Shown: positions 8,173 to 58,310, numbered from the stretch's first letter. The stretch: 64,000 nucleotides of DNA from Candidatus Uhrbacteria bacterium (GCA_943359525.1 CALRHV010000001.1:7181-71180); one strand, 5' to 3'. Translations and numbers: made by a program. The notes: a model not told the origin generated them from the sequence alone.

Positions 8173-9900
8173 TTAGCGACGAAGTTTTTCAAGCGCACAG
8201 TTCCACAGCGTTTTGCATCGATTCCCCACCGTCAGTCGTGCGACGATTTTTTCGCGACATGCTTCGATTGCTTCAAATGTGGGGACGCGATCCAGCCACG
8301 ATGCACGGAAATACCATGCGATGAGTGCAATTGCGCCAGTAAGGATACCGATGATTCCCATGCGCAACGTCCCCATTGCAGTGACGATGCCTCCGTTAAA
8401 CGTTCCCGCAGCGCTGGTAAGTGGATCAGCACCGATAGCAGCGAAAAGTTGCGGCAGCGCGAATCCGCTCACGAGTGCGAGGAATGCGAGCAGCACAATG
8501 GGAGTGAGTTGCGAATCGGTTGCCTCGGTGATGACCTTCTCCGATTCTGCTCGCGATGAACCAAGGAATACGCCGATGATCACGCGACCAACACTCACAA
8601 TCGACAACAGCACACAAAGATCAAAGATAACGAGGATAGCACCAGAGATAATTGCCAGCGGAAGCGCTATGTCGGGAAAAGCCCCCCAAAGTGTTGTGGC
8701 AAACATCCAGGCGCTCGTGAACGTTGCAAACGGCGGAAAGCCAATGGCACAGAGGAGAAGAATGAACGCAGCAATCGTTAGCTTGGGCATTTTTTCTGCA
8801 AGGCCTCCGGTATGGTTGATGTTCGATCCCACAATATCGCCGACGAGGAAGAGGCCCGATCCTGCGATAGCACTAACCGTAATCTGTACGAATGCCGCAA
8901 ACAGCATCACATTCATTGCCTCATAGATTGCGACAGCTTGGAACGCCATTGCACCGGCAACCATCGTTATTGCAACACCCATGCTCTGTAAACTGATATT
9001 ACTGAAGATGCGTTGAATGTTCTTTTCATTCAGCGCACAAATTGCGCCGCACACAATCGTCAATACACCAAGCAAAGCCACAGGAAGAGCGAACCAGATG
9101 GACAACGGCGGAAGAATGAACAGAATACACCTTACGAATCCGTAAAAGGCCACGCCAGAAAGCACTCCTCGGAATAACGCGCTGATATGTGCAGGAACGG
9201 TTGCGTGGACGTTGCGGAGCCAGCGATGCATCGGGAACAGGCCAATGGTGCTCGCGAAGCCAAAGAGCAACAGACCGTAGCCAACAGTGAGCTGAATTGG
9301 ATCGATTTGGCCAGCGAGATATGCGAGCGTGCCGAAGTCGCTAAACAACGCGCCGGAAGAAAGAATAAAGAAACCAGCAGTGAGTGCCGCGATACCGAGT
9401 TGCGAGATGGTCAGAAATTGCAGCGCGACCGACTTTTCCGATCGCGAAAAAACGAGAAAGAACACGGAGAACATCATTACGGCCCAGGAGGCAATGAAAC
9501 CGATAATGTTTCCGGAGATGAACACCCACTGTGCACCAATGACGAAAAGCGCGCTGAGGATTCCGACGTGACGAAGATGCGCGAGATTGTTTTGGTGCTT
9601 TGCTCCATACACCAACGCGTAGAGACCAGCCGCTGCGATCACAATCGATATCCCAACAAAAAAGATCGCACTGAAGCGATCCAACGCGATCGTCATCCCA
9701 TAGAACATCGGAACGGACATAGTGAACGGTGCTTCGGCGACGGCGCCGTATGCACCAGCGATTGCTCCTCCAATTCCTGAAAGGGCAAGGAGAAGCGAGT
9801 TCCATTTGAACGACATCGCCGGCTTAAGGAACGCCGACACCACAAGGGCAAGCACCGGAGCAACCATGGCAATATAGAGTGTATTCTCAAAAGGTGTCAT
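8173..9900 (-). CDS. NADH-quinone oxidoreductase subunit L/M or Mrp antiporter MnhA/D-like membrane protein (PF00361)
   Basis: 575 aa, more than 14 TM helices; …FPMHRWLRNVHATVPAHISALFRGVLSGVAF… matches the WLPDA..GPTPVSAL region of complex-I antiporter-like subunits. Confidence 0.65.
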   Translation of the reverse strand: MTPFENTLYIAMVAPVLALVVSAFLKPAMSFKWNSLLLALSGIGGAIAGAYGAVAEAPFTMSVPMFYGMTIALDRFSAIFFVGISIVIAAAGLYALVYGAKHQNNLAHLRHVGILSALFVIGAQWVFISGNIIGFIASWAVMMFSVFFLVFSRSEKSVALQFLTISQLGIAALTAGFFILSSGALFSDFGTLAYLAGQIDPIQLTVGYGLLLFGFASTIGLFPMHRWLRNVHATVPAHISALFRGVLSGVAFYGFVRCILFILPPLSIWFALPVALLGVLTIVCGAICALNEKNIQRIFSNISLQSMGVAITMVAGAMAFQAVAIYEAMNVMLFAAFVQITVSAIAGSGLFLVGDIVGSNINHTGGLAEKMPKLTIAAFILLLCAIGFPPFATFTSAWMFATTLWGAFPDIALPLAIISGAILVIFDLCVLLSIVSVGRVIIGVFLGSSRAESEKVITEATDSQLTPIVLLAFLALVSGFALPQLFAAIGADPLTSAAGTFNGGIVTAMGTLRMGIIGILTGAIALIAWYFRASWLDRVPTFEAIEACREKIVARLTVGNRCKTLWNCALEKLRR

Positions 9901-9974
9901 AGCCTGGAAATATTACGGAATAAGTCCCTGTATATCAGCCGAAGTGTATGGTTTATAGGGTTCCCGATCAAGCA

Positions 9975-10015
9975 GGTTGTCCACTGCAAAAATGACCCTT
10001 CCCGGCCTTATGGCT
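9975..10015 (-). terminator. Rho-independent terminator of the atp operon
   Basis: About 15-bp GC-rich stem (aatgacccttcccggcc / ggctggggagggtcatt) followed on the minus strand by TTTTTGC. Confidence 0.7.
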
Positions 10016-10036
10016 GGGGAGGGTCATTGATCGCGT

Positions 10037-10477
10037 TTATCCCTCGGAACGGTGCTGTCTCGACTTCCCTTTTTTCATCGCTACACGATATCTCGCTAAT
10101 TCGCGTTCCAAGTGGGCCGCGGCGTCGGCGAACCCAACGTCGTTTTTGTCTCGGAGTTCTCGCAAATTGTCTTCCGCGAGTTTCTTTGCGGCTTCGATTG
10201 CGGCGATTTCGAGCTCTTCACTACGCTCTGCCGTGTCGGCGAGAACAACGATCGACGAACCGTCGCGAACCTCGAAAAGCCCGGTGGACGTTGCGAGGAG
10301 CGTTTCCTGTTTGTCGTTCATAATCCGCATCTCGCCAGCCTTCATGAGCGCCAAAAGCGGAATGTGATTCGGCAGAACAGTGATCTCGCCCATACTCGTC
10401 ATAACCGAAATTGAATCCGCCTCGCCTTCTTGGACGATGCGTTCTGGCGTAACGATTTGGTATTTGAGTTTTGGCAT
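10037..10477 (-). CDS. atpC: F0F1 ATP synthase subunit epsilon
   Basis: MPKLKYQIVTPERIVQEGEADSISVMTSMGEITVLPNHIPLL…; last gene of atp operon. Confidence 0.9.
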   Translation of the reverse strand: MPKLKYQIVTPERIVQEGEADSISVMTSMGEITVLPNHIPLLALMKAGEMRIMNDKQETLLATSTGLFEVRDGSSIVVLADTAERSEELEIAAIEAAKKLAEDNLRELRDKNDVGFADAAAHLERELARYRVAMKKGKSRQHRSEG

Positions 10478-10637
10478 AGAGTGGTGGATGCGAGCGATTC
10501 AACGGGTGGCACCGAGGGAGGCCCCCGTACGGAGCGCAACGAGCGCCGTAGTAACGTGATGATCGCCGATGAAGTGACGCGCGCGGTGAGCACCGTAACG
10601 GGGTCCGAGGTGACAGGACCCGTTGATGAGCTCGCAA

Positions 10638-12895
<2,258 letters not shown>

Positions 12896-35384: not shown

Positions 35385-35569
35385 GCCGACCGAGCGTAGC
35401 GAGCGATTCAACGAGTGGCACCGAGGACATCACAAGCGCCAGTGGCGAGGATACATTCTTCCAACGAGCACGCGCCCCTCAGCTGCAGTCGAGTGTAAAC
35501 GAGACGTCGCAGCGTAGGGGATTCGCGCGGAGTGCAGAAGAATGTATCCGAGCCACCAGCTTGCGATGA

Positions 35570-50462: not shown

Positions 50463-51767
50463 ATGTACACTGTGAATACTATGAGAAACAACCGCGTTGC
50501 AGTCGTTGGAGCAGGGCTCGCGGGACTTACTGCCGCGTATCGGATTCTCAAGGAAGGAAAGCATATCGTCGATATTTATGAATCCCAACCAGATATTGGC
50601 GGACGAGTCCAAAGCCGAACCATCCAAGGTCAGAAGGTGGATTTTGGTGGTTTCCTCATGTATCCGTGGTATGAACATGCGCATCAACTTTTTTCCGATC
50701 TTCAGATTGCCGATATCCTCGTGAGTACCCCTCACAGTGATATCTTCTACTTCTTAGACGATTCCGGTGTTGCATTACGAGAAAATGAGATCCCATTTCC
50801 TGTTGGCGACGGACTGCGGATCTGGACGAAGTCGTTCTTTAAAATTCTTCCAAAGTCCGATCTTGCCGCACCAGACCTTGAACGATTCGAAAACAAAACA
50901 ACTTCTGAATATCTCCGATCCGTCCTTGATACTCAAGGCCATGCAGGACTTTACGAAACATTTTTCGACACGGTAAACCAGGGATACTGTTATGGACCGG
51001 TGAATCAAGGCAAGGCAGCTTTTATGATGCCGATTGTTCGGCAGATCCAGTTTCACGGAGACATTCGTACCACATCATTTTTTCCTCAAGGCGCGGAAAC
51101 GCTCACTGAACATCTCAAAAGAGAAATCTTTTCCCTTGGCGGAAATATTCACTGCAACACCTTGATTACCGGCATCGGAGAGAAAGCACTTACATCTGAA
51201 TCGAAGACATTCGATTTCGATTCCGTTGTTTTTGCGCAAAATGTATCGCACGAAATCTATCAATCGCTTCTTCCAAACATCCAGATCCAATGCACGTACA
51301 CTCGATTTATCGCCGTTGCCGTGCGACTTCCAAAAATACCAATCGTCGGCAATTCCCAAGATTGGGGCGCGGCGTTCTATGTGCCAACTGCGCAACCATC
51401 GTTTCAAACGCTTTCCATCATCAATCTTGGCGCGCTCTACGGCGCCGCTCTCGACGGCTGCGTGCTCATGAACATTGTTCTTCGCGACGACGAAACGACT
51501 ACATATACAATTGCCGACGCTACGCGCATCGCACACGCCGAACTTCACCGACTCTTTGCCGACATCCATTCCGTGGAGACGCTTGATTTCGTTCACTGGA
51601 AAACCACCATGCCTATTGCGCAAGAAGCATTCATTCACGCGGTTCGCGACGCACATGGAAAGAACGGAATCTACTTCGCAGGCGATTTTCTTGGCGCTCC
51701 GTCAATCGAAACCGCCATTGCAACCGGAGACATGGCGGCCGAAAGCGTTATCGCTGCTCTGGATTAG
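50463..51767 (+). CDS. FAD-dependent oxidoreductase, amine oxidase / protoporphyrinogen oxidase-like (alternative start at 50481)
   Basis: N-terminal Rossmann dinucleotide motif VAVVGAGLAGLTAAYRI…IYESQPDIGGR. Confidence 0.8.
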   Translation: MYTVNTMRNNRVAVVGAGLAGLTAAYRILKEGKHIVDIYESQPDIGGRVQSRTIQGQKVDFGGFLMYPWYEHAHQLFSDLQIADILVSTPHSDIFYFLDDSGVALRENEIPFPVGDGLRIWTKSFFKILPKSDLAAPDLERFENKTTSEYLRSVLDTQGHAGLYETFFDTVNQGYCYGPVNQGKAAFMMPIVRQIQFHGDIRTTSFFPQGAETLTEHLKREIFSLGGNIHCNTLITGIGEKALTSESKTFDFDSVVFAQNVSHEIYQSLLPNIQIQCTYTRFIAVAVRLPKIPIVGNSQDWGAAFYVPTAQPSFQTLSIINLGALYGAALDGCVLMNIVLRDDETTTYTIADATRIAHAELHRLFADIHSVETLDFVHWKTTMPIAQEAFIHAVRDAHGKNGIYFAGDFLGAPSIETAIATGDMAAESVIAALD

Positions 51768-52564
51768 GATTTCCGAATGCCAATCTTTCCGTTGATCGGA
51801 AGGGTGTTCATGAATGCATCTGAAACTATTTTCACCTCACTGAAATCTGCATTCCACGAAAGAAAGATTGTTTCTGTTGGGAACAAGTATCGTCCACCGT
51901 CGCGACCACAGAAATACACGTTGGGACTGTTTTGTGTACGAATCATGTCTCCTGGAGCGCACGCATCAGGATCTTTCGTGATCGTTTCGTGAACCGTTGT
52001 TTCTTCTGTTTCCGCAGCACTCGCGGCTAAAGTTTTTGTTTCCGCCTTTTGGGCAGCCTTCAGAATAGAGTACGGATTGATTGGAACATTCTTGGGATTC
52101 AGGATTTCAAAGTGCACATGTGCTCCCGTACGTTCCGCGTTCCCCGAATCACCCACGTACCCAATATGCTGACCGCGCTTCACATGAACGCCTTTCTTGA
52201 TTCCCTCGGCGTACGCGTGTTCTGGTCCGCCCAACCCGTCGTCGGTTCCTGGGGTGTCGTTGTTCAAATGCACGTAGTTGTACTGATAGCCGTCGTCGCC
52301 ACCAAGCATGATCATGAACCCGTAGCTTGGCTGTGCCATTGGAGCAAAGAGAATAACACCGTCGACTGCCGCCACCACGGGCAGCATCTTTGCCGCCATA
52401 ATATCGGTGGCGTGGTGAATGCGGCCACCACTTCGTGCCGCGGTAAAAGTGTCTGTGTACGCTACGTCACCAATCACCGGAAAGGTAATGTCGTGAACTC
52501 CCTCAGCACGCGCCGCCATCGGAAAACCTACGAGCAAAAGCACGCCCCATATCCAATACTTCAT
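51764..52564 (-). CDS. Secreted M23-family (LytM-type) metallopeptidase with C-terminal YF.GxDG.R…F module (ATG two codons inside TTG-initiated ORF)
   Basis: Signal peptide; HxxxD (HHATD) and HVHFE motifs; C-terminal about 60 aa similar to the C-terminal domains of 53576..54685 and 57171..58310. Confidence 0.8.
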   Translation of the reverse strand: MKYWIWGVLLLVGFPMAARAEGVHDITFPVIGDVAYTDTFTAARSGGRIHHATDIMAAKMLPVVAAVDGVILFAPMAQPSYGFMIMLGGDDGYQYNYVHLNNDTPGTDDGLGGPEHAYAEGIKKGVHVKRGQHIGYVGDSGNAERTGAHVHFEILNPKNVPINPYSILKAAQKAETKTLAASAAETEETTVHETITKDPDACAPGDMIRTQNSPNVYFCGRDGGRYLFPTETIFLSWNADFSEVKIVSDAFMNTLPINGKIGIRKS

Positions 52565-52690
52565 AGGCAACTAGTGTATCGCTTTTGTCAACATTTTAAA
52601 AGAAAACATGTGGACACGATGGTGATATTCCCATAGACAGAACGGACGACATCAGCTACACTTCCCCGTCCGATTTCACATGGAGATTCA

Positions 52691-53482
52691 TTGGCAACTC
52701 GCATCATTCCTCTCGACCTCAGCAATGAGGACGTTCTACAAGAATTCGAAACGCAACAGCACGCCTTCTGGCGCGGCAACTGCATCTCCTTCGCGGCCGC
52801 CGTCCATCGCATCACTGGCTGGGAGGTGATCGCCATCGACACCGATCAATACCAATTTTCGCACTGCGGCGTTCGTTCGCCGGAAGGGGTGATCTGGGAT
52901 GGGCGCGGGCCGGTGACGGCGGAACTGTTCATCGAAGGCCACGTGAGCACGGTTCCGGAAGCATTCCGCGTTCCAGCGTGGGACGAGCTGAAAACGGTAT
53001 GGCCGGCGGTCGACCTCCCCGGCACCGAACGCATCGTCTCGCAGATGTTCCCTCACCTCCCCCACCTGCCGTCCAGCGATCGTTCGCGAAACCTCACCTT
53101 CATGGACCGCGTGGAGGCATTAAGCCGACGGTGCAACGTGTGGATTCGTGGAGCACACGCTCCGCACATGAGGCCGGTGATCGGCGAGGCGTTCGGAGAG
53201 GAAGTCGGCTACCGAGCAGCAAAGACTGATGGGCGTATCACGATGGATCGAATGCTTCGGTCGGATGTGGTGCGGGGGCCCAGCCACCTCTCACAACCGT
53301 TCGACCGGTTCCTCGGAGAACTTGCCAATCTCAGCCATCAGCACGGACTGTGGATCCGCGCCGGGCTGCCCACCACGTGGCCAAGAATCGTGCGGCTCGA
53401 TCCGGAGCGCATCAACGCCAACACGCACTACGTGATGCGTCAGACCGACAACGCAGCGGGATTTCTCATCACGCTCCCCTGA
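52691..53482 (+). CDS. Hypothetical protein, strongly GC-rich (about 62%) gene, TTG start
   Basis: 263-aa ORF with own terminator downstream; atypical composition. Confidence 0.45.
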   Translation: MATRIIPLDLSNEDVLQEFETQQHAFWRGNCISFAAAVHRITGWEVIAIDTDQYQFSHCGVRSPEGVIWDGRGPVTAELFIEGHVSTVPEAFRVPAWDELKTVWPAVDLPGTERIVSQMFPHLPHLPSSDRSRNLTFMDRVEALSRRCNVWIRGAHAPHMRPVIGEAFGEEVGYRAAKTDGRITMDRMLRSDVVRGPSHLSQPFDRFLGELANLSHQHGLWIRAGLPTTWPRIVRLDPERINANTHYVMRQTDNAAGFLITLP

Positions 53483-53488
53483 AACGCG

Positions 53489-53525
53489 AAGGCCGCCCTC
53501 ACCGGCGGCCTTCATGCTTTTTCAT
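53489..53525 (+). terminator. Rho-independent terminator
   Basis: aaggccgcc-ctcacc-ggcggcctt then catgcttttt. Confidence 0.7.
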
Positions 53526-53575
53526 CCACAGAAATGCGTTGACAGCTGGGTGGAACAGGCATGAAATGACTGTAT

Positions 53576-54685
53576 ATGACAAATCTTTTCCTCCGTAAGG
53601 TGCTCGGAGTTACAACAATCTTCGCAATGTTCCTTACTTTTGTTCCGCTTTCTGCCAGCGCCTCCTGGCTTGGCGCACCAAGTAACGTCACGCTCGAAGA
53701 TGGCATTTACACAAATGACACCACGCCAACCGCCACCTGGACTCGTCCAGCTAACGCAACGTGGTACCAAGTTCTTGTCGACAACGGCGAGTGGCAAAAC
53801 CTGTCCAACGTTGGTTCGTACACGCTGTTAACGCAAACAAACGGCTGGCATACGTTCTACGTTCGCGCTCGTGGCAATAACAACACCGTGAGCACATCGG
53901 GATCCGTCACCTTCGAAATCGACACCATCGGCCCAACAGTCTCGACGGTATCTCCCTCATCGGCGATCGAGGATGTATCAACCGCGTTCTCAATTTCAAC
54001 CTCTGGCGAAGCTGCAACATCGTTCTGTGATCTGTACGTTAGTGGATCGTTCACTGGATCGATGACGAAAAGTGGGTCAACCTTCAGTAAGTCCTACACG
54101 TTTGCGAATGACGGAAGCTATACCGTATACGCACGCTGCACCGATGGCGACGGCAACTCCACCACGGGAACATCGCGCACCGTAACCGTGAGCAACCAAT
54201 CAACCACATACACCGGCGCAGTTCGCGGATCGCTCATCAAAATTCCTTGCGGCGTGTACGCACGAACGTCGGAAACGTGTAAGGCGGTGTACTACTTCGG
54301 CAACGACGGCAAGCGCCATGTGTTCGCAAACGAAAGCGTGTTCTACACGTGGTACTCCGATTTTGACGACGTGGTGAACGTAAGCCAAGACTTCATGTCG
54401 TCACTGACGATCGGGAAAAATGTCACATATCGCCCAGGAAGCGTCGTCGTAAAATTCGACAGCTCATCCAAGGTGTACGCCATTCAAGCGGATCACACGC
54501 TTCGTCACTACACCACACTCTCGCTCCTGAAATCCGATTACGGTACATACTGGACGAACGTTCTCGCGAAAGTTCCAGATTCCCTCTACAGCAACTACAC
54601 CATCGGCTCCGTGATCGACAACGTCCGAGACTACGACCGCGACGATGCGTACTATTCCGTCGACTCCATCGACGACGTGCTCTAA
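53576..54685 (+). CDS. Secreted Ig-like/fibronectin-like repeat protein, paralogue A
   Basis: Signal peptide MTNLFLRKVLGVTTIFAMFLTFVPLSASA. Beta-rich repeats (…TWTRPANATWYQVLVDNGEWQ…FEIDTIGPTVS…). About 45% identical to 57171..58310. Confidence 0.65.
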   Translation: MTNLFLRKVLGVTTIFAMFLTFVPLSASASWLGAPSNVTLEDGIYTNDTTPTATWTRPANATWYQVLVDNGEWQNLSNVGSYTLLTQTNGWHTFYVRARGNNNTVSTSGSVTFEIDTIGPTVSTVSPSSAIEDVSTAFSISTSGEAATSFCDLYVSGSFTGSMTKSGSTFSKSYTFANDGSYTVYARCTDGDGNSTTGTSRTVTVSNQSTTYTGAVRGSLIKIPCGVYARTSETCKAVYYFGNDGKRHVFANESVFYTWYSDFDDVVNVSQDFMSSLTIGKNVTYRPGSVVVKFDSSSKVYAIQADHTLRHYTTLSLLKSDYGTYWTNVLAKVPDSLYSNYTIGSVIDNVRDYDRDDAYYSVDSIDDVL

Positions 54686-54707
54686 ACGCGATCGATCAGA
54701 TCGGCAA

Positions 54708-54733
54708 GACACCAAAACCGGCTCTGCGCCGGT
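54708..54733 (+). terminator. Rho-independent terminator
   Basis: caaaaccggc-tctgc-gccggttttg. Confidence 0.7.
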
Positions 54734-54764
54734 TTTGTGATTGCAATTTGTTATACTGCTCTGC

Positions 54765-55907
54765 ATGAAGATCGCAACAAATGTTCATCGTGATGCTTTT
54801 GGCGGAATTACCATTTCAAACCTCGCATTATTTGATTGGCTCAAAGACAAGGACACCACGATTGTTGGTATTGAGTACATCAATTCCCGCCATTTTCTTG
54901 GAGCAGTCATTTTTCGTCACTATCTTCCCTCATTTTTTAGTCATCACATCATTAATGGCATCGACATTGTTCCTCGCTATTCATGGGAGACAACATCGAA
55001 CATAAAAAAACGATGGAGAGTACTTATCGAAACAACAAAAAAAGTATTACAGCAAGAGGCGCCGGACGTTGTATTGATTAACGGAACCTATTCTTCCCCG
55101 TGGATTCTGGCTCAAGCGGCTCATGAACTTGGCATTCCTATTGTTTTACGATATGCAGGAGTACTGCAAAAAGAGGTTGTGCATAAAGGATATTTCGTTC
55201 GCAGGCGCCTTTTAGGCTATGAACGATGGATCGTTTCCAGCGCGACGGCGATTATTTTTCCCTCTGCTCTCTGTAAAAAAGTTGTTGAAGAAGACGTTCT
55301 CAAACACGTCGTATCGCAGGGCGTCATTATTCCGAATCCCGTGAGCGCTCTTGGTGCGATGCGGAGAAGAACAAAAAAGAGTCGCTTTACCATTGCCACG
55401 ATTGGACGCTGGACCCCAATTAAAAATTTCCAAGCTTTCATTGCCCTCCACACAAAACTTCTTAAAGACCGATGGCCGCATCGTGCGGTGATGGTCACGT
55501 CGTACTGGGACAATAAATTTGGCATTCCAGAAACCATCGAGCGAAAGGAGCCGATGAGTCAGGAAGATCTTCGGAAATTTTACCAATCCATTGATCTCCT
55601 TGTTGTCCCTTCTCATTTTGAAACATTCTGTAACGTTGCCGCTGAGGCATTGGTTCATGGATCTTCAGTGCTCGTTTCCGAAAATGTCGGCTTTGCGGAA
55701 GTACTGAAACAGGCCGGGCTCGGACGCATGGTTATTCCGTCATTCGAAAATCCCGCAATAGTTGCCACTGCAGTCAAACGCATCGCAAAAACGACTCTCA
55801 CAAAAAAGGAACGAGATGCCGTCGCACGTATTGTGCGTCCTCAAGAAATTCACGAAAATATTATTCGTGTCTTGGAATTGGTTCTTAAGGGCGAATTACT
55901 CAAGTAG
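54765..55907 (+). CDS. Glycosyltransferase family 4 (GT-B)
   Basis: C-terminal …VVPSHFETFCNVAAEALVHGSSVLVSENVG… EX7E-like motif. Confidence 0.8.
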   Translation: MKIATNVHRDAFGGITISNLALFDWLKDKDTTIVGIEYINSRHFLGAVIFRHYLPSFFSHHIINGIDIVPRYSWETTSNIKKRWRVLIETTKKVLQQEAPDVVLINGTYSSPWILAQAAHELGIPIVLRYAGVLQKEVVHKGYFVRRRLLGYERWIVSSATAIIFPSALCKKVVEEDVLKHVVSQGVIIPNPVSALGAMRRRTKKSRFTIATIGRWTPIKNFQAFIALHTKLLKDRWPHRAVMVTSYWDNKFGIPETIERKEPMSQEDLRKFYQSIDLLVVPSHFETFCNVAAEALVHGSSVLVSENVGFAEVLKQAGLGRMVIPSFENPAIVATAVKRIAKTTLTKKERDAVARIVRPQEIHENIIRVLELVLKGELLK

Positions 55908-56043
55908 CACTCCCGGATTTCTCCGGGAGTGCGTGGCACATGTTAGTGCGTTCCTTGGTTGTACAATTTGAGCGCGTAGTCAGACCACCACGCTCCGGCG
56001 CTCGGGCCGCCACTGCAGTTGCCGTCGGAATCGCCTGGTGCTT

Positions 56044-56505
56044 TCACCCATAATCCTGCATCTTGATATCACTGACGGCTTTCATGAATTCGTCGTAATG
56101 TGCTGCGATCATCGAACGATTGATAGTGTAGCCGAGCGTGATGTGCTGACTCAGGACTTTTGTAGCCCATTGACGGAATTTGGTTGCTCGTTGGGAATTC
56201 ACCCGGTATCCAACAGAAATAATCACGTCGAGATTGTAGTACTCAATTTCACGTGTTACTTCGCGTTTGCCTTCCTTTTGAACTGTTGCGATTTTTGCAA
56301 CAGTTGCCTTTTGGCCAAGTTCGCCACTTTCAAAAATATTCTGGATATGACGAGAGACACCGGATTTATCCGTATCAAAAAGATCAGCCATTTGCTGAAG
56401 ACTGGCCCAAAGCGTTTGTTTTTTTGTATCTGTGCGCAGCTCGATAGCTCCGGATTTCGCCTGATAAACAGCGAGCTGATTCGTGATATTCCTCTTGGAT
56501 TTCAT
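56044..56505 (-). CDS. RhuM-family protein (virulence-associated / Fic-DOC neighbourhood family), N-terminal conserved domain only
   Basis: …GAIELRTDTKKQTLWASLQQMADLFDTDKSGVSRHIQNIFESGEL…YYNLDVIISVGYRVNSQRATKFRQWATKVL… matches RhuM core. Confidence 0.75.
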   Translation of the reverse strand: MKSKRNITNQLAVYQAKSGAIELRTDTKKQTLWASLQQMADLFDTDKSGVSRHIQNIFESGELGQKATVAKIATVQKEGKREVTREIEYYNLDVIISVGYRVNSQRATKFRQWATKVLSQHITLGYTINRSMIAAHYDEFMKAVSDIKMQDYG

Positions 56506-56551
56506 ACGGAGGCATTATAACAAAATCCCAGCATTTCTGCTGAGATTTCGT

Positions 56552-56626
56552 TGGCTCCGGGGGTGGGGATCGAACCCACGACCTGAGGATTAACAGTCCT
56601 TCGCTCTGCCGCTGAGCTACCCCGGA
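56552..56626 (-). tRNA. tRNA-Asn (anticodon GTT), CCA encoded (coordinates approximate within 2 nt)
   Basis: Own fold: acceptor TCCGGGG/CCCCGGA, D-arm GCTC…GAGC, anticodon loop CTGTTAA, T-arm GTGGG-TTCGATC-CCCAC, discriminator G, CCA. Confidence 0.85.
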
Positions 56627-56728
56627 ACGAATAATGAACGGGGGCAGAATATCATGATTGGCGCAGAGGATCAAGCGGGTGTGCCCACAGAGCCAGGCCG
56701 TCTTCGTGTTAAAATACGAACATATCCT

Positions 56729-57118
56729 ATGCAAAAATCTACCATATTCGGCATCAAGGTCAGCGTCGGCTCAACACTTCTCCTCTTCGCGCTCGTTGTT
56801 CTCTCCTATTACGTCCTCGGCGAAGGATATCGCGAAGCTATTCACAATAAGGTTTTTATAGGTGCGTACACAACCGTTCTCTCTTTCCTCACCGCGCTAT
56901 TCACCGCAAATACTCTGTTAAAGAATTCAAAGCTCTCAAAACAAGAGGCTATCGATCACCTGAATCGAGGCTGGCGGGTATATGCAGGAATTGCGGCGAT
57001 CTTCTTTTTTATCAACTTCAACCAGGCACTGATGAATGGACCGATCTTCACCTTGTTCTCAATTCTCTCAATCGCCGCTGGTTCTGCAGCGTTCTTTGTT
57101 CTGAGGGCTCGACAGTAA
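56729..57118 (+). CDS. Small hypothetical membrane protein (4 TM helices)
   Basis: Hydropathy. Confidence 0.45.
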   Translation: MQKSTIFGIKVSVGSTLLLFALVVLSYYVLGEGYREAIHNKVFIGAYTTVLSFLTALFTANTLLKNSKLSKQEAIDHLNRGWRVYAGIAAIFFFINFNQALMNGPIFTLFSILSIAAGSAAFFVLRARQ

Positions 57119-57170
57119 ACAAAAAAGACGAAGCATTGCTGCCCCGTCTTTTTCTCATCGTGATCGATGA

Positions 57171-58310
57171 TTAGTCGATAACGACGCCATTGTCCCAGTT
57201 CTGATCAATGGTAGTTGTTCCGTAAAATTCCTTTGTTTTGCTGTAATCGGCAGAGGAATAAATCTTGCTGCCGATGGTGTAGTTGTTCCAATATGCCTGC
57301 GGAAGCGTCACAACGTAACTCGTCCAGCGCGAACCGTAAATGGCCTTTGCTGCAGCTTCATTAACAATGGGACGGAGCACCTGACCATCGGCCACCGCGT
57401 ACACCGTGCTGGAATTTGAGAATTTCACAAGCGACGTGCCAGGACGATACGTCACATTCCGGCCGCTCGGCATATTATTAAGTGTTGCCTTACTCACGAT
57501 GATCACGTTCGAAAACGAACTGTACCAGGTTTTGTACACGCTTTCTGATGGGAAAAGGTGCTTCTTACCGTCCAAACCGTAGTAATACACGATATGACAA
57601 TCGTCAGAAGTTGGCGCGTATGATCCGCACTGGGTCTTCACCACTGTTCCCTTTACGACGTTCGCGACCGGATAGTCGTCATACAAAATGACGCCCTTGC
57701 TCACACCAACAAACGATACCGGGCCGTTGCTCCAATTATTATCAGCATCAACACACGTTGACTGAATAACATTGCGTCCAAGCGCGTTCAAGGTGACGCT
57801 CTGAGACCATCTCGATCCATCGATCGCCATCCGCTCACCGAGCGTGCCGTTCACACGGAGTTTGCAATACTGCACCGGAGCCTCTCCCGATGTTGTCACA
57901 TAAAAACGCGTTAAGACTCCAGCTACTGCAGTGGTCGGAGTAACAACCGACACCACTGGCCCCTGCGTATCGATCTCAAAGGTCAGCCCAGAGGAAACGC
58001 TTACGCCGTTCACGCTGTCGTGGGAACGAACGTAGAAGGTGTGCCATCCGGTTGTGAGGGTGTTGTATGTATACGTAGAAACGTTGCCGATTCCAGCCCA
58101 TTCGCCGTTGTCGAGCAACACTTCGTACCAGGTTGCGCCCGCTGAAGGCGTCCAGGTGAAGGTTGGGGTAACGTCATTGGTGTACTTTCCGCCAACAATC
58201 GCAAGGTTTACTGGAGCTACAGGAGCCGCAAATGCTGGCAACGCTGGGCCGAACACCGAACCAATAATCATCACCGCTACTGCGAAACGTGACACAAGCG
58301 TCTTTTGCAT
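57171..58310 (-). CDS. Secreted Ig-like/fibronectin-like repeat protein, paralogue B (inverted relative to A)
   Basis: Signal peptide …AVMIIGSVFGPALPAFAAP; collinear similarity to paralogue A throughout. Confidence 0.65.
   Translation of the reverse strand: MQKTLVSRFAVAVMIIGSVFGPALPAFAAPVAPVNLAIVGGKYTNDVTPTFTWTPSAGATWYEVLLDNGEWAGIGNVSTYTYNTLTTGWHTFYVRSHDSVNGVSVSSGLTFEIDTQGPVVSVVTPTTAVAGVLTRFYVTTSGEAPVQYCKLRVNGTLGERMAIDGSRWSQSVTLNALGRNVIQSTCVDADNNWSNGPVSFVGVSKGVILYDDYPVANVVKGTVVKTQCGSYAPTSDDCHIVYYYGLDGKKHLFPSESVYKTWYSSFSNVIIVSKATLNNMPSGRNVTYRPGTSLVKFSNSSTVYAVADGQVLRPIVNEAAAKAIYGSRWTSYVVTLPQAYWNNYTIGSKIYSSADYSKTKEFYGTTTIDQNWDNGVVID

Follow-up and report, generated by a model that had tools for sequence, protein, structure and literature searches.

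Surface proteins of monoderm bacteria have been described in terms of swappable anchoring modules (bioRxiv 10.1101/2025.04.02.646754). The SLH, CWB2, SH3b, LysM and choline-binding repeats follow the logic by which one module is carried by hydrolases and by unrelated surface proteins, at either terminus. Among the binding domains of phage endolysins, PlyCB recognises the polyrhamnose backbone of the streptococcal wall polysaccharide (bioRxiv 10.1101/2021.03.19.436156), and the LysIME-EF1 domain, a functional tetramer, attaches to cells of E. faecalis; both are obligate oligomers (PMC7098653). The 50-57-residue repeats of EccB1, each a four-stranded sheet with two helices, resemble PlyCB, and a role in peptidoglycan anchoring was suggested by the authors of that structure (PMC4769845). 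Here we describe a protein module with a predicted fold of this kind that is shared by three secreted proteins of a Candidatus Uhrbacteria bacterium: an M23 peptidase and two Ig-like proteins, termed A and B. The three genes lie in a 64-kb stretch of DNA (GCA_943359525.1 CALRHV010000001.1:7181-71180; mean GC content 50.8%), hereafter called the window, to which all positions refer unless another locus is named. We consider it rather probable that the module is an extracellular targeting module used throughout the Patescibacteria, which would dock its host proteins non-covalently on the cell wall.

An open reading frame (ORF) scan and ARAGORN reproduced every feature that a sequence-only reading of the region had reported, at the same coordinates. 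The predicted secreted M23 (LytM-type) metallopeptidase is encoded on the minus strand (51764-52570) and is 268 residues long when read from a TTG codon, or 266 residues when started at the ATG at 52564, as in the public call (P0251). Protein A (53576-54685, plus strand; 369 residues, public entry P0021) comprises a signal peptide, two Ig-like (Big_13-like) domains, the module and an acidic tail. Protein B (57171-58310, minus strand; 379 residues, public entry P0048) has a signal peptide and two Ig-like domains followed by the module. The signal peptides of all three proteins were called by eye, with predicted cleavage between ...LSASA and SW, ...PAFA and AP, and ...AARA and EG.

The sequence-only reading held that A, B and the peptidase have a C-terminal module in common, and pairwise comparison confirmed this: the tail of the peptidase aligns with both Ig-like proteins over 49 residues at 41% identity (E = 5e-11 and 8e-11). 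The motif given for the module was also correct, in that VY..G..GK..F...WY..F..V...G.NVTYRPG is invariant in 12 homologues, the invariant positions being V25, Y26, K33, F37, W46, Y47, F50, V53, G67 and N69-G75 (NVTYRPG). When 150 sequences are considered, NVTYRPG, TWYSDF and YG..W are almost invariant. A six-frame scan of the window revealed no further copies beyond those in the peptidase, A and B.

In A and B the module extends over approximately 131 residues and consists of two tandem repeats of approximately 60-70 residues each, termed r1 and r2. In protein A, r1 spans residues 218-288 (54227-54439, plus strand; r1 profile E = 1.2e-32) and carries a Cys-x9-Cys loop and the NVTYRPG hinge, and r2 spans residues 290-348 (54443-54619, plus strand; r2 profile E = 9.3e-21). 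The corresponding repeats of protein B are found at residues 222-291 (57438-57647, minus strand; r1 profile E = 6.6e-29) and 292-350 (57261-57437, minus strand; r2 profile E = 2.5e-21). Pairwise BLAST detects no significant similarity between r1 and r2, and a profile-profile comparison based on 261-sequence alignments of each half matches them over 52 columns with an E value of 2.8e-5. Because the two profiles match and the order of their secondary structure elements agrees, we conclude that the module arose by tandem duplication.

Searches of Pfam, NCBIfam and PHROGs with the module returned no match, and a family profile run against all PDB sequences returned only chance matches to antibody 'AVYYC' segments. 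The literature library searched contained no description of the module in the Candidate Phyla Radiation (CPR), and none of the sequence sources gives it a name. Taken together, the data support a genuine domain common to the three proteins and annotated in none of the domain libraries searched. A single-sequence search of the PDB had also matched the seven-bladed propeller lectins PLL/PHL of Photorhabdus (E = 0.013), which have a weak 'DG(K/R)..VF...W' periodicity in common with the module. This match was absent when the family profile or a fold search was used and is attributed to chance, and the model of the module is not a propeller.

Prediction with AlphaFold2, using a 156-residue query and a 12-sequence alignment, gave a confident model with a predicted local distance difference test score (pLDDT) of 94.1 and a predicted template modelling score (pTM) of 0.82. 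The model contains two successive beta-beta-beta-alpha-beta-alpha-beta units, at residues 6-70 and 78-134, with the NVTYRPG hinge located between them. Each unit is predicted to be a compact domain of approximately 50-70 residues in which a four-stranded beta-sheet lies against two helices, as in PlyCB, and the model also conforms to the fold of the EccB repeat domains. The best structural match is EccB1, which also ranks at the top of the Foldseek results without reaching significance (E = 0.035). In BFVD the strongest similarity is to small actinophage proteins that are uncharacterised (E = 3.4e-5, TM score 0.77 on the target), and weaker matches fall within CHAP, amidase, lysozyme and M23 proteins of phages. 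As modelled, the repeat unit falls in the fold class of the EccB repeats and of the binding domains of PlyCB, LysIME-EF1 and Lys170.

The module nevertheless differs from each of these relatives. Its likeness to PlyCB (4f87), LysIME-EF1 (6ist) and Lys170 (7d55) is one of fold class, and sequence similarity is not detectable. PlyCB-type domains belong to endolysins of Gram-positive phages and become multivalent by forming homo-oligomers from separate genes or internal starts, whereas the module is a cellular, CPR-wide domain that is fused to many non-lytic surface domains and carries its tandem duplication in one chain. EccB of the ESX (type VII) secretion system (3x3m, 5ebd, 5cyu) has a central core, an N-terminal transmembrane anchor and four repeats (R1-R4), whereas the module proteins have two repeats and a cleavable signal peptide and, unlike EccB, are soluble secreted enzymes or Ig-like proteins; the EccB family PF05108 gave no match at E <= 1. 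Finally, SLH, CWB2, SH3b, LysM and choline-binding repeats resemble the module in the logic of their use and are unrelated to it in sequence and in fold. Some members of the family carry SH3_3/SH3_4 domains as well, which means that the module is more than a substitute for SH3b.

The peptidase illustrates how the module is attached to an enzyme. Its catalytic domain (approximately residues 30-166) matches PF01551 with 61.3 bits against a cut-off of 28.7, is preceded by the signal peptide, and is connected through a disordered linker (residues 182-197) to one copy of r1. The zinc ligands, which form an H-x3-D (H52, D56) and an H-x-H (H151, H153) motif, are invariant in 64 homologues. This order of catalytic domain, linker and r1 corresponds to the usual layout of autolysins and endolysins. 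As had been proposed, the tail of the peptidase is exactly the first half of the module: r1 occupies residues 204-266 (51773-51961, minus strand; r1 profile E = 7.4e-17), the protein stops at the hinge between r1 and r2, and no match to r2 is found. In the AlphaFold2 model of the peptidase (pLDDT 88) the r1 segment has a pLDDT of 91-96 and retains the beta-beta-beta-alpha-beta-alpha-beta order, and the lone r1 is thus predicted to remain an autonomous fold.

All 120 of the nearest M23 homologues carry r1 or r1 and r2, and the module is therefore found tethered to a peptidoglycan-hydrolase domain in every one of them. Both repeats are present in 106 (median length 335 residues); the other 14, which are the closest relatives of the window protein (253-316 residues, 55-100% identical), have r1 only and end at the hinge. 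An M23 protein with the module is a standard architecture in Patescibacteria. These comparisons show that the clade to which the window protein belongs lost r2 in a stable, clade-specific manner; this is no local truncation, as the orthologues in five related loci (L001, L002, L013, L014 and L015) share the r1-only form. We also considered the peptidase tail as the original one-repeat unit, a possibility ruled out by the presence of both repeats in the common and ancestral M23 architecture. The pairing of this gene with one for an Ig-like protein bearing the module is conserved in L001, L002, L013 and L014.

The layout of the peptidase bears on an alternative function, in which the module would be a protein-protein scaffold or oligomerisation domain of a surface lattice or complex, comparable to the periplasmic repeats of EccB or to the surfaces through which PlyCB forms rings, and would not bind the wall. 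EccB1, its best structural match, is a structural part of a secretion machine whose binding to the wall is unproven (PMC4769845), the related PlyCB and LysIME-EF1 domains are obligate oligomers (PMC7098653), and two to four stretches of the module are present in some members of the family. However, a disordered linker leading to a hydrolase with intact catalytic residues and fusion to many unrelated enzymes at either terminus are both typical of a targeting module and unlike a subunit of a fixed complex, and no conserved partner gene was found besides the pair of M23 and A. We therefore regard a purely scaffolding role as unlikely.

To delimit the family, 1.84 billion representatives of clusters at 50% identity were searched exhaustively with HMMER. 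The module is present in no fewer than 5,258 clusters at E <= 1e-3, of which 2,400 are retained at E <= 1e-30, and a profile search of a database clustered at 90% returned at least 2,330 proteins from a capped set of candidates. The named sources are Patescibacteria-group or Uhrbacteria bacteria, with the exception of one partial record labelled 'archaeon', and these names give little taxonomic resolution below Patescibacteria. Host proteins range from 150 to 1,300 residues, and the module is located either directly behind the signal peptide or at the C-terminus. An N-terminal hydrophobic segment is present in 224 of 250 members. The profile search and a survey of 62 sequences with Pfam identified as partners M23, NAGPA phosphodiester glycosidase, GH114, SH3_3/SH3_4, cyclophilin (PPIase), plastocyanin-like and DUF3048 domains, as well as Big_7/Big_13/PKD/fn3 domains and BNR/PSII_BNR propellers.

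CPR bacteria are often epibionts, and the range of partners raises the question of whose envelope is recognised. If the module were an adhesin or lectin directed at a host bacterium, it would bind surface glycans or the wall of that host and would deliver the M23 and Ig-like proteins to its envelope instead of to the wall of the CPR cell. BNR/sialidase-like propellers, Ig-like adhesin-type domains and glycosidases are among the partners, the wall polysaccharides to which PlyCB-type domains bind are species-specific (bioRxiv 10.1101/2021.03.19.436156), and the divergence of A from B is as expected under diversifying pressure on surface proteins. In contrast, the core is very strongly conserved across thousands of diverse Patescibacteria, with motifs that are near-invariant among 150 sequences, and this speaks for a single conserved ligand, for instance the peptidoglycan of the cell itself, rather than for the surfaces of many different hosts. 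Moreover, the combination of M23 and module is near-universal, single-copy-like and annotated 'M23 family metallopeptidase', as is typical of a housekeeping autolysin. For these reasons a host-directed function seems improbable to us.

Docking on the wall of the cell itself is the function that we favour, since the near-invariant core motifs across diverse CPR bacteria point to a conserved ligand of the cell's own. In the mechanism that we propose, the peptidase, A and B would be exported by the Sec pathway, after which the module would bind non-covalently to the cell wall, either to peptidoglycan or to a wall glycopolymer. Such docking would concentrate the M23 hydrolase at its substrate and would keep the Ig-like proteins on the surface. 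The tandem arrangement of r1 and r2 may provide, within one chain, the avidity that PlyCB (an octamer) and LysIME-EF1 (a tetramer) achieve by oligomerising. The sequence-only reading had suggested an envelope or cell-wall-binding anchor, and the fold class, the partner domains and the secreted context point in that direction, while the binding itself is what we infer from them. Several observations weigh against this assignment. In sequence, the module is homologous to none of the characterised binding domains covered by Pfam, NCBIfam, PHROGs or the PDB profile search, and wall binding by EccB1 is itself unproven (PMC4769845). Many of the partners are Ig-like or BNR domains of unclear role, and the architectures would fit a generic extracellular role equally well. 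In addition, a scan of viral_contigs detected no module, and an argument from borrowing by phage lysins consequently falls away.

Proteins A and B are clear paralogues, as had been stated, with 43% identity over 369 residues and full length (E = 9e-101). Their N-terminal halves match Big_13 (PF19077) with 24.8 bits in A and 19.4 bits in B, below the cut-off of 27 bits, and PF19077 is a precomputed assignment for the close homologues P0026 and P0031. Orthologues of A in L001 and L002 are 70-71% identical to it, orthologues of B in L007-L010 are 52-65% identical, and the metagenome-assembled genome (MAG) Ike-50m-33 holds an orthologue of each (in L002 and L008, respectively). As the orthologues are more similar (52-71%) than A and B are to each other (43%), and as both occur in one MAG, the sequences indicate that the duplication is old. 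At the DNA level, A and B are 70% identical over 120 nt and their longest perfect run is 16 nt, which therefore offers no substrate for a recent inversion.

Two observations on related Ig-like proteins may be added. The orthologue of A in L002 (9259-10858) is broken into a pair of ORFs that overlap (9259-10032 and 10001-10858), the result either of a frameshift that made it a pseudogene or of faulty assembly. The Ig-like protein encoded beside M23 in closer relatives is far longer (747 residues at 2382-4625 of L013; 652 residues at 2787-4745 of L014) and has the same r1-r2 end; the N-terminal Ig-like array therefore grows and shrinks while the module is kept.

Between A and B lie four further genes. 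A GT4-family glycosyltransferase (54741-55907, plus strand) matches Glyco_trans_1_4, Glycos_transf_1 and Glyco_transf_4 above their cut-offs, and is followed by a 153-residue RhuM-family gene (56044-56505, minus strand). RhuM-family genes are common on islands, and the family assignment made earlier stands (PF13310, 88.7 bits), although the match is confined to the N-terminal third (model positions 1-89 of 252) and the gene is truncated. It lies just downstream of the 3' end of tRNA-Asn (GTT) (56552-56626, minus strand; identified by ARAGORN and by Rfam RF00005 with 66.9 bits) and on the same strand. The fourth gene encodes a small membrane protein (56654-57118, plus strand) with approximately four hydrophobic helices by eye.

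In this arrangement, the sequence-only reading saw a tRNA-linked island whose ends had been made by duplication or inversion of the A/B genes. In its full form, the proposal would be that the segment of 51.8-58.3 kb is a tRNA-Asn island, with ends formed by duplication of A/B and an invertible interior. We examined related loci, retrieved through A-like, B-like and M23 proteins and titled 'Candidatus Uhrbacteria' or 'Patescibacteria group', and found that each relative examined has a different set of genes between A and B. In L001, A is followed by other genes and no tRNA; in L002, it is followed by two unrelated ORFs and then by an identical tRNA-Asn that points the other way with respect to A, where the contig ends. 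On the side of B, L007 has 5.6 kb of ordinary genes (MerR/TipAS, MsrA, DUF2200, DUF1761 and glyoxalase) before an identical tRNA-Asn, and L008 has an ECF sigma factor, a 439-residue ORF, MsrA, the decayed remnant of a RhuM gene and a fragment of a different tRNA. The contig ends of L002 and L008, which belong to the same MAG, do not overlap, and the A...tRNA...B interval cannot be joined there. As to base composition, GT4 (44.4% GC) and RhuM (44.2%) are AT-rich, with z scores of about -2.5.

Other features of the same interval argue against an island. Integrase, recombinase and transposase genes are absent among the ORFs at 50.4-58.3 kb and from the variable segments of L002, L007 and L008, in which the genes are instead MerR/TipAS, MsrA, glyoxalase, ECF sigma factor and DUF proteins. 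The 25-nt 3' end of the tRNA has no second copy within three mismatches in the 64 kb, so that an att repeat is lacking, and the direct repeats found in 51-59 kb are short ones at chance level. The M23, A and B genes have a GC content of 51-53%, which is typical for the window. A and B also keep their own conserved flanks. On the left, the order DUF5671, DUF2914, GTPase, intervening genes, M23, a 263-residue ORF and A is conserved in L001 and L002 with 70-80% DNA identity, and L013 and L014 have the r1-only M23 gene next to an Ig-like r1-r2 gene. On the right, B is followed by an ABC ATPase, an ABC permease and a GGR-like gene in L009, L010 and L012, and by the GGR-like gene in L007 and L008. 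Together with the old divergence of A and B (43% identity, perfect DNA matches of at most 16 nt, orthologues of each in MAG Ike-50m-33), these flanks contradict the claim that the region ends were made by duplication or inversion of the two genes, and we consider an island of this description very unlikely.

What remains of the proposal is a variable segment. GT4 and the RhuM fragment (1.8 kb) fill the space from the stop codon of A to the 3' end of the tRNA. Neither is found in the related loci compared, with GT4 specifically lacking a homologue in L001, L002, L007-L010 and L012, although at 70-80% DNA identity between the relatives such turnover is expected anyway. GT4 and the truncated RhuM gene beside the tRNA 3' end could represent a small insertion that has since decayed, and they alone look acquired. 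On the simplest reading, the locus is ordinary chromosome, in which the conserved pair of M23 and A, and the conserved block of B with its ABC and GGR-like genes, surround a rearrangement-prone tRNA-Asn segment that holds this small AT-rich remnant.

Several additional observations were made in and around this segment. At the contig end of L008 (13503-14832), the 3' part of a different tRNA is accompanied by a terminator-like hairpin, a 175-residue ORF and an N-terminal RhuM remnant overlapped by an intact MsrA gene; the order of tRNA and then RhuM remnant is therefore seen a second time, next to a different tRNA of a related genome. Directly upstream of tRNA-Asn, approximately 22 nt (CATGATATTCTGCCCCCGTTC; window 56627-56660, L007 8338-8367) are conserved between the window and L007, and not in L002, and this sequence is probably the tRNA promoter. 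Because the conserved region occupies 56627-56660, the true start of the small membrane protein is likely to be the ATG at 56729 (129 residues) and not position 56654. The protein has no significant family in Pfam, NCBIfam or PHROGs, and the 246-residue ORFs that lie upstream of the tRNA-Asn genes of L002 and L007 show homology neither to each other nor to it. L007 itself (CAYROW010000034.1) is labelled as an uncultured Gammaproteobacteria bacterium; its genes are 65-90% identical to those of the window (GGR-like 90%, B 65%), it has the same tRNA-Asn sequence as the Uhrbacteria MAG, and it is probably a mis-binned contig.

The ORF between M23 and A (52691-53482, plus strand; 263 residues) has the highest GC content in the window (61.6%, z score +4.2) and no obvious signal peptide. 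It finds no family match in Pfam, NCBIfam or PHROGs, and a protein 68% identical to it is likewise encoded beside M23 in L002. Elsewhere in the window, a near-perfect hairpin of 132 nt (35433-35564; minimum free energy -68 kcal/mol, z score -7.6) also occurs in L002 (1542-1673) and L013 (16759-16782). The window and L002 copies are 94% identical, compared with 75-80% for the surrounding DNA. The sites are not syntenic and always lie just 3' of a gene, namely a 603-residue gene in the window and DUF2914 in L002 and L013, and the hairpin matches no Rfam family. It may be a palindromic element resembling a miniature inverted-repeat transposable element (MITE) or a repetitive extragenic palindromic (REP) sequence, or else a mobile terminator.

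Much of bacterial diversity belongs to the Patescibacteria, or CPR bacteria, most of which are uncultivated and spend their lives attached to other cells. To our knowledge, essentially nothing is known about the attachment of their surface proteins and autolysins to the envelope. What is new here is a unit of the PlyCB/EccB-repeat type that is tandemly duplicated and used lineage-wide in CPR bacteria, and that belongs by sequence to no described family. A bolder possibility, which we hold only tentatively, is that r1-r2 is a general, lineage-specific, non-covalent surface anchor of Patescibacteria and an analogue of SLH and CWB2, which would have evolved by tandem duplication of such a unit, would recognise a conserved wall component, and would organise much of the CPR secretome, including autolysins, glycosidases, and Ig-like and BNR proteins. 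The module is attached to the main M23 autolysin type and to many surface proteins. Its definition would remove the 'hypothetical' status of thousands of proteins and would provide a testable candidate for wall anchoring in CPR bacteria and for the ligand involved. The module may also yield binding-domain probes for labelling or capturing CPR cells, and if it is indeed a general anchor, such probes would be specific for uncultivated CPR bacteria. More broadly, the PlyCB/EccB repeat fold, known from phage lysins and type VII secretion, would gain a third setting, a cellular one, where tandem duplication provides the multivalency.

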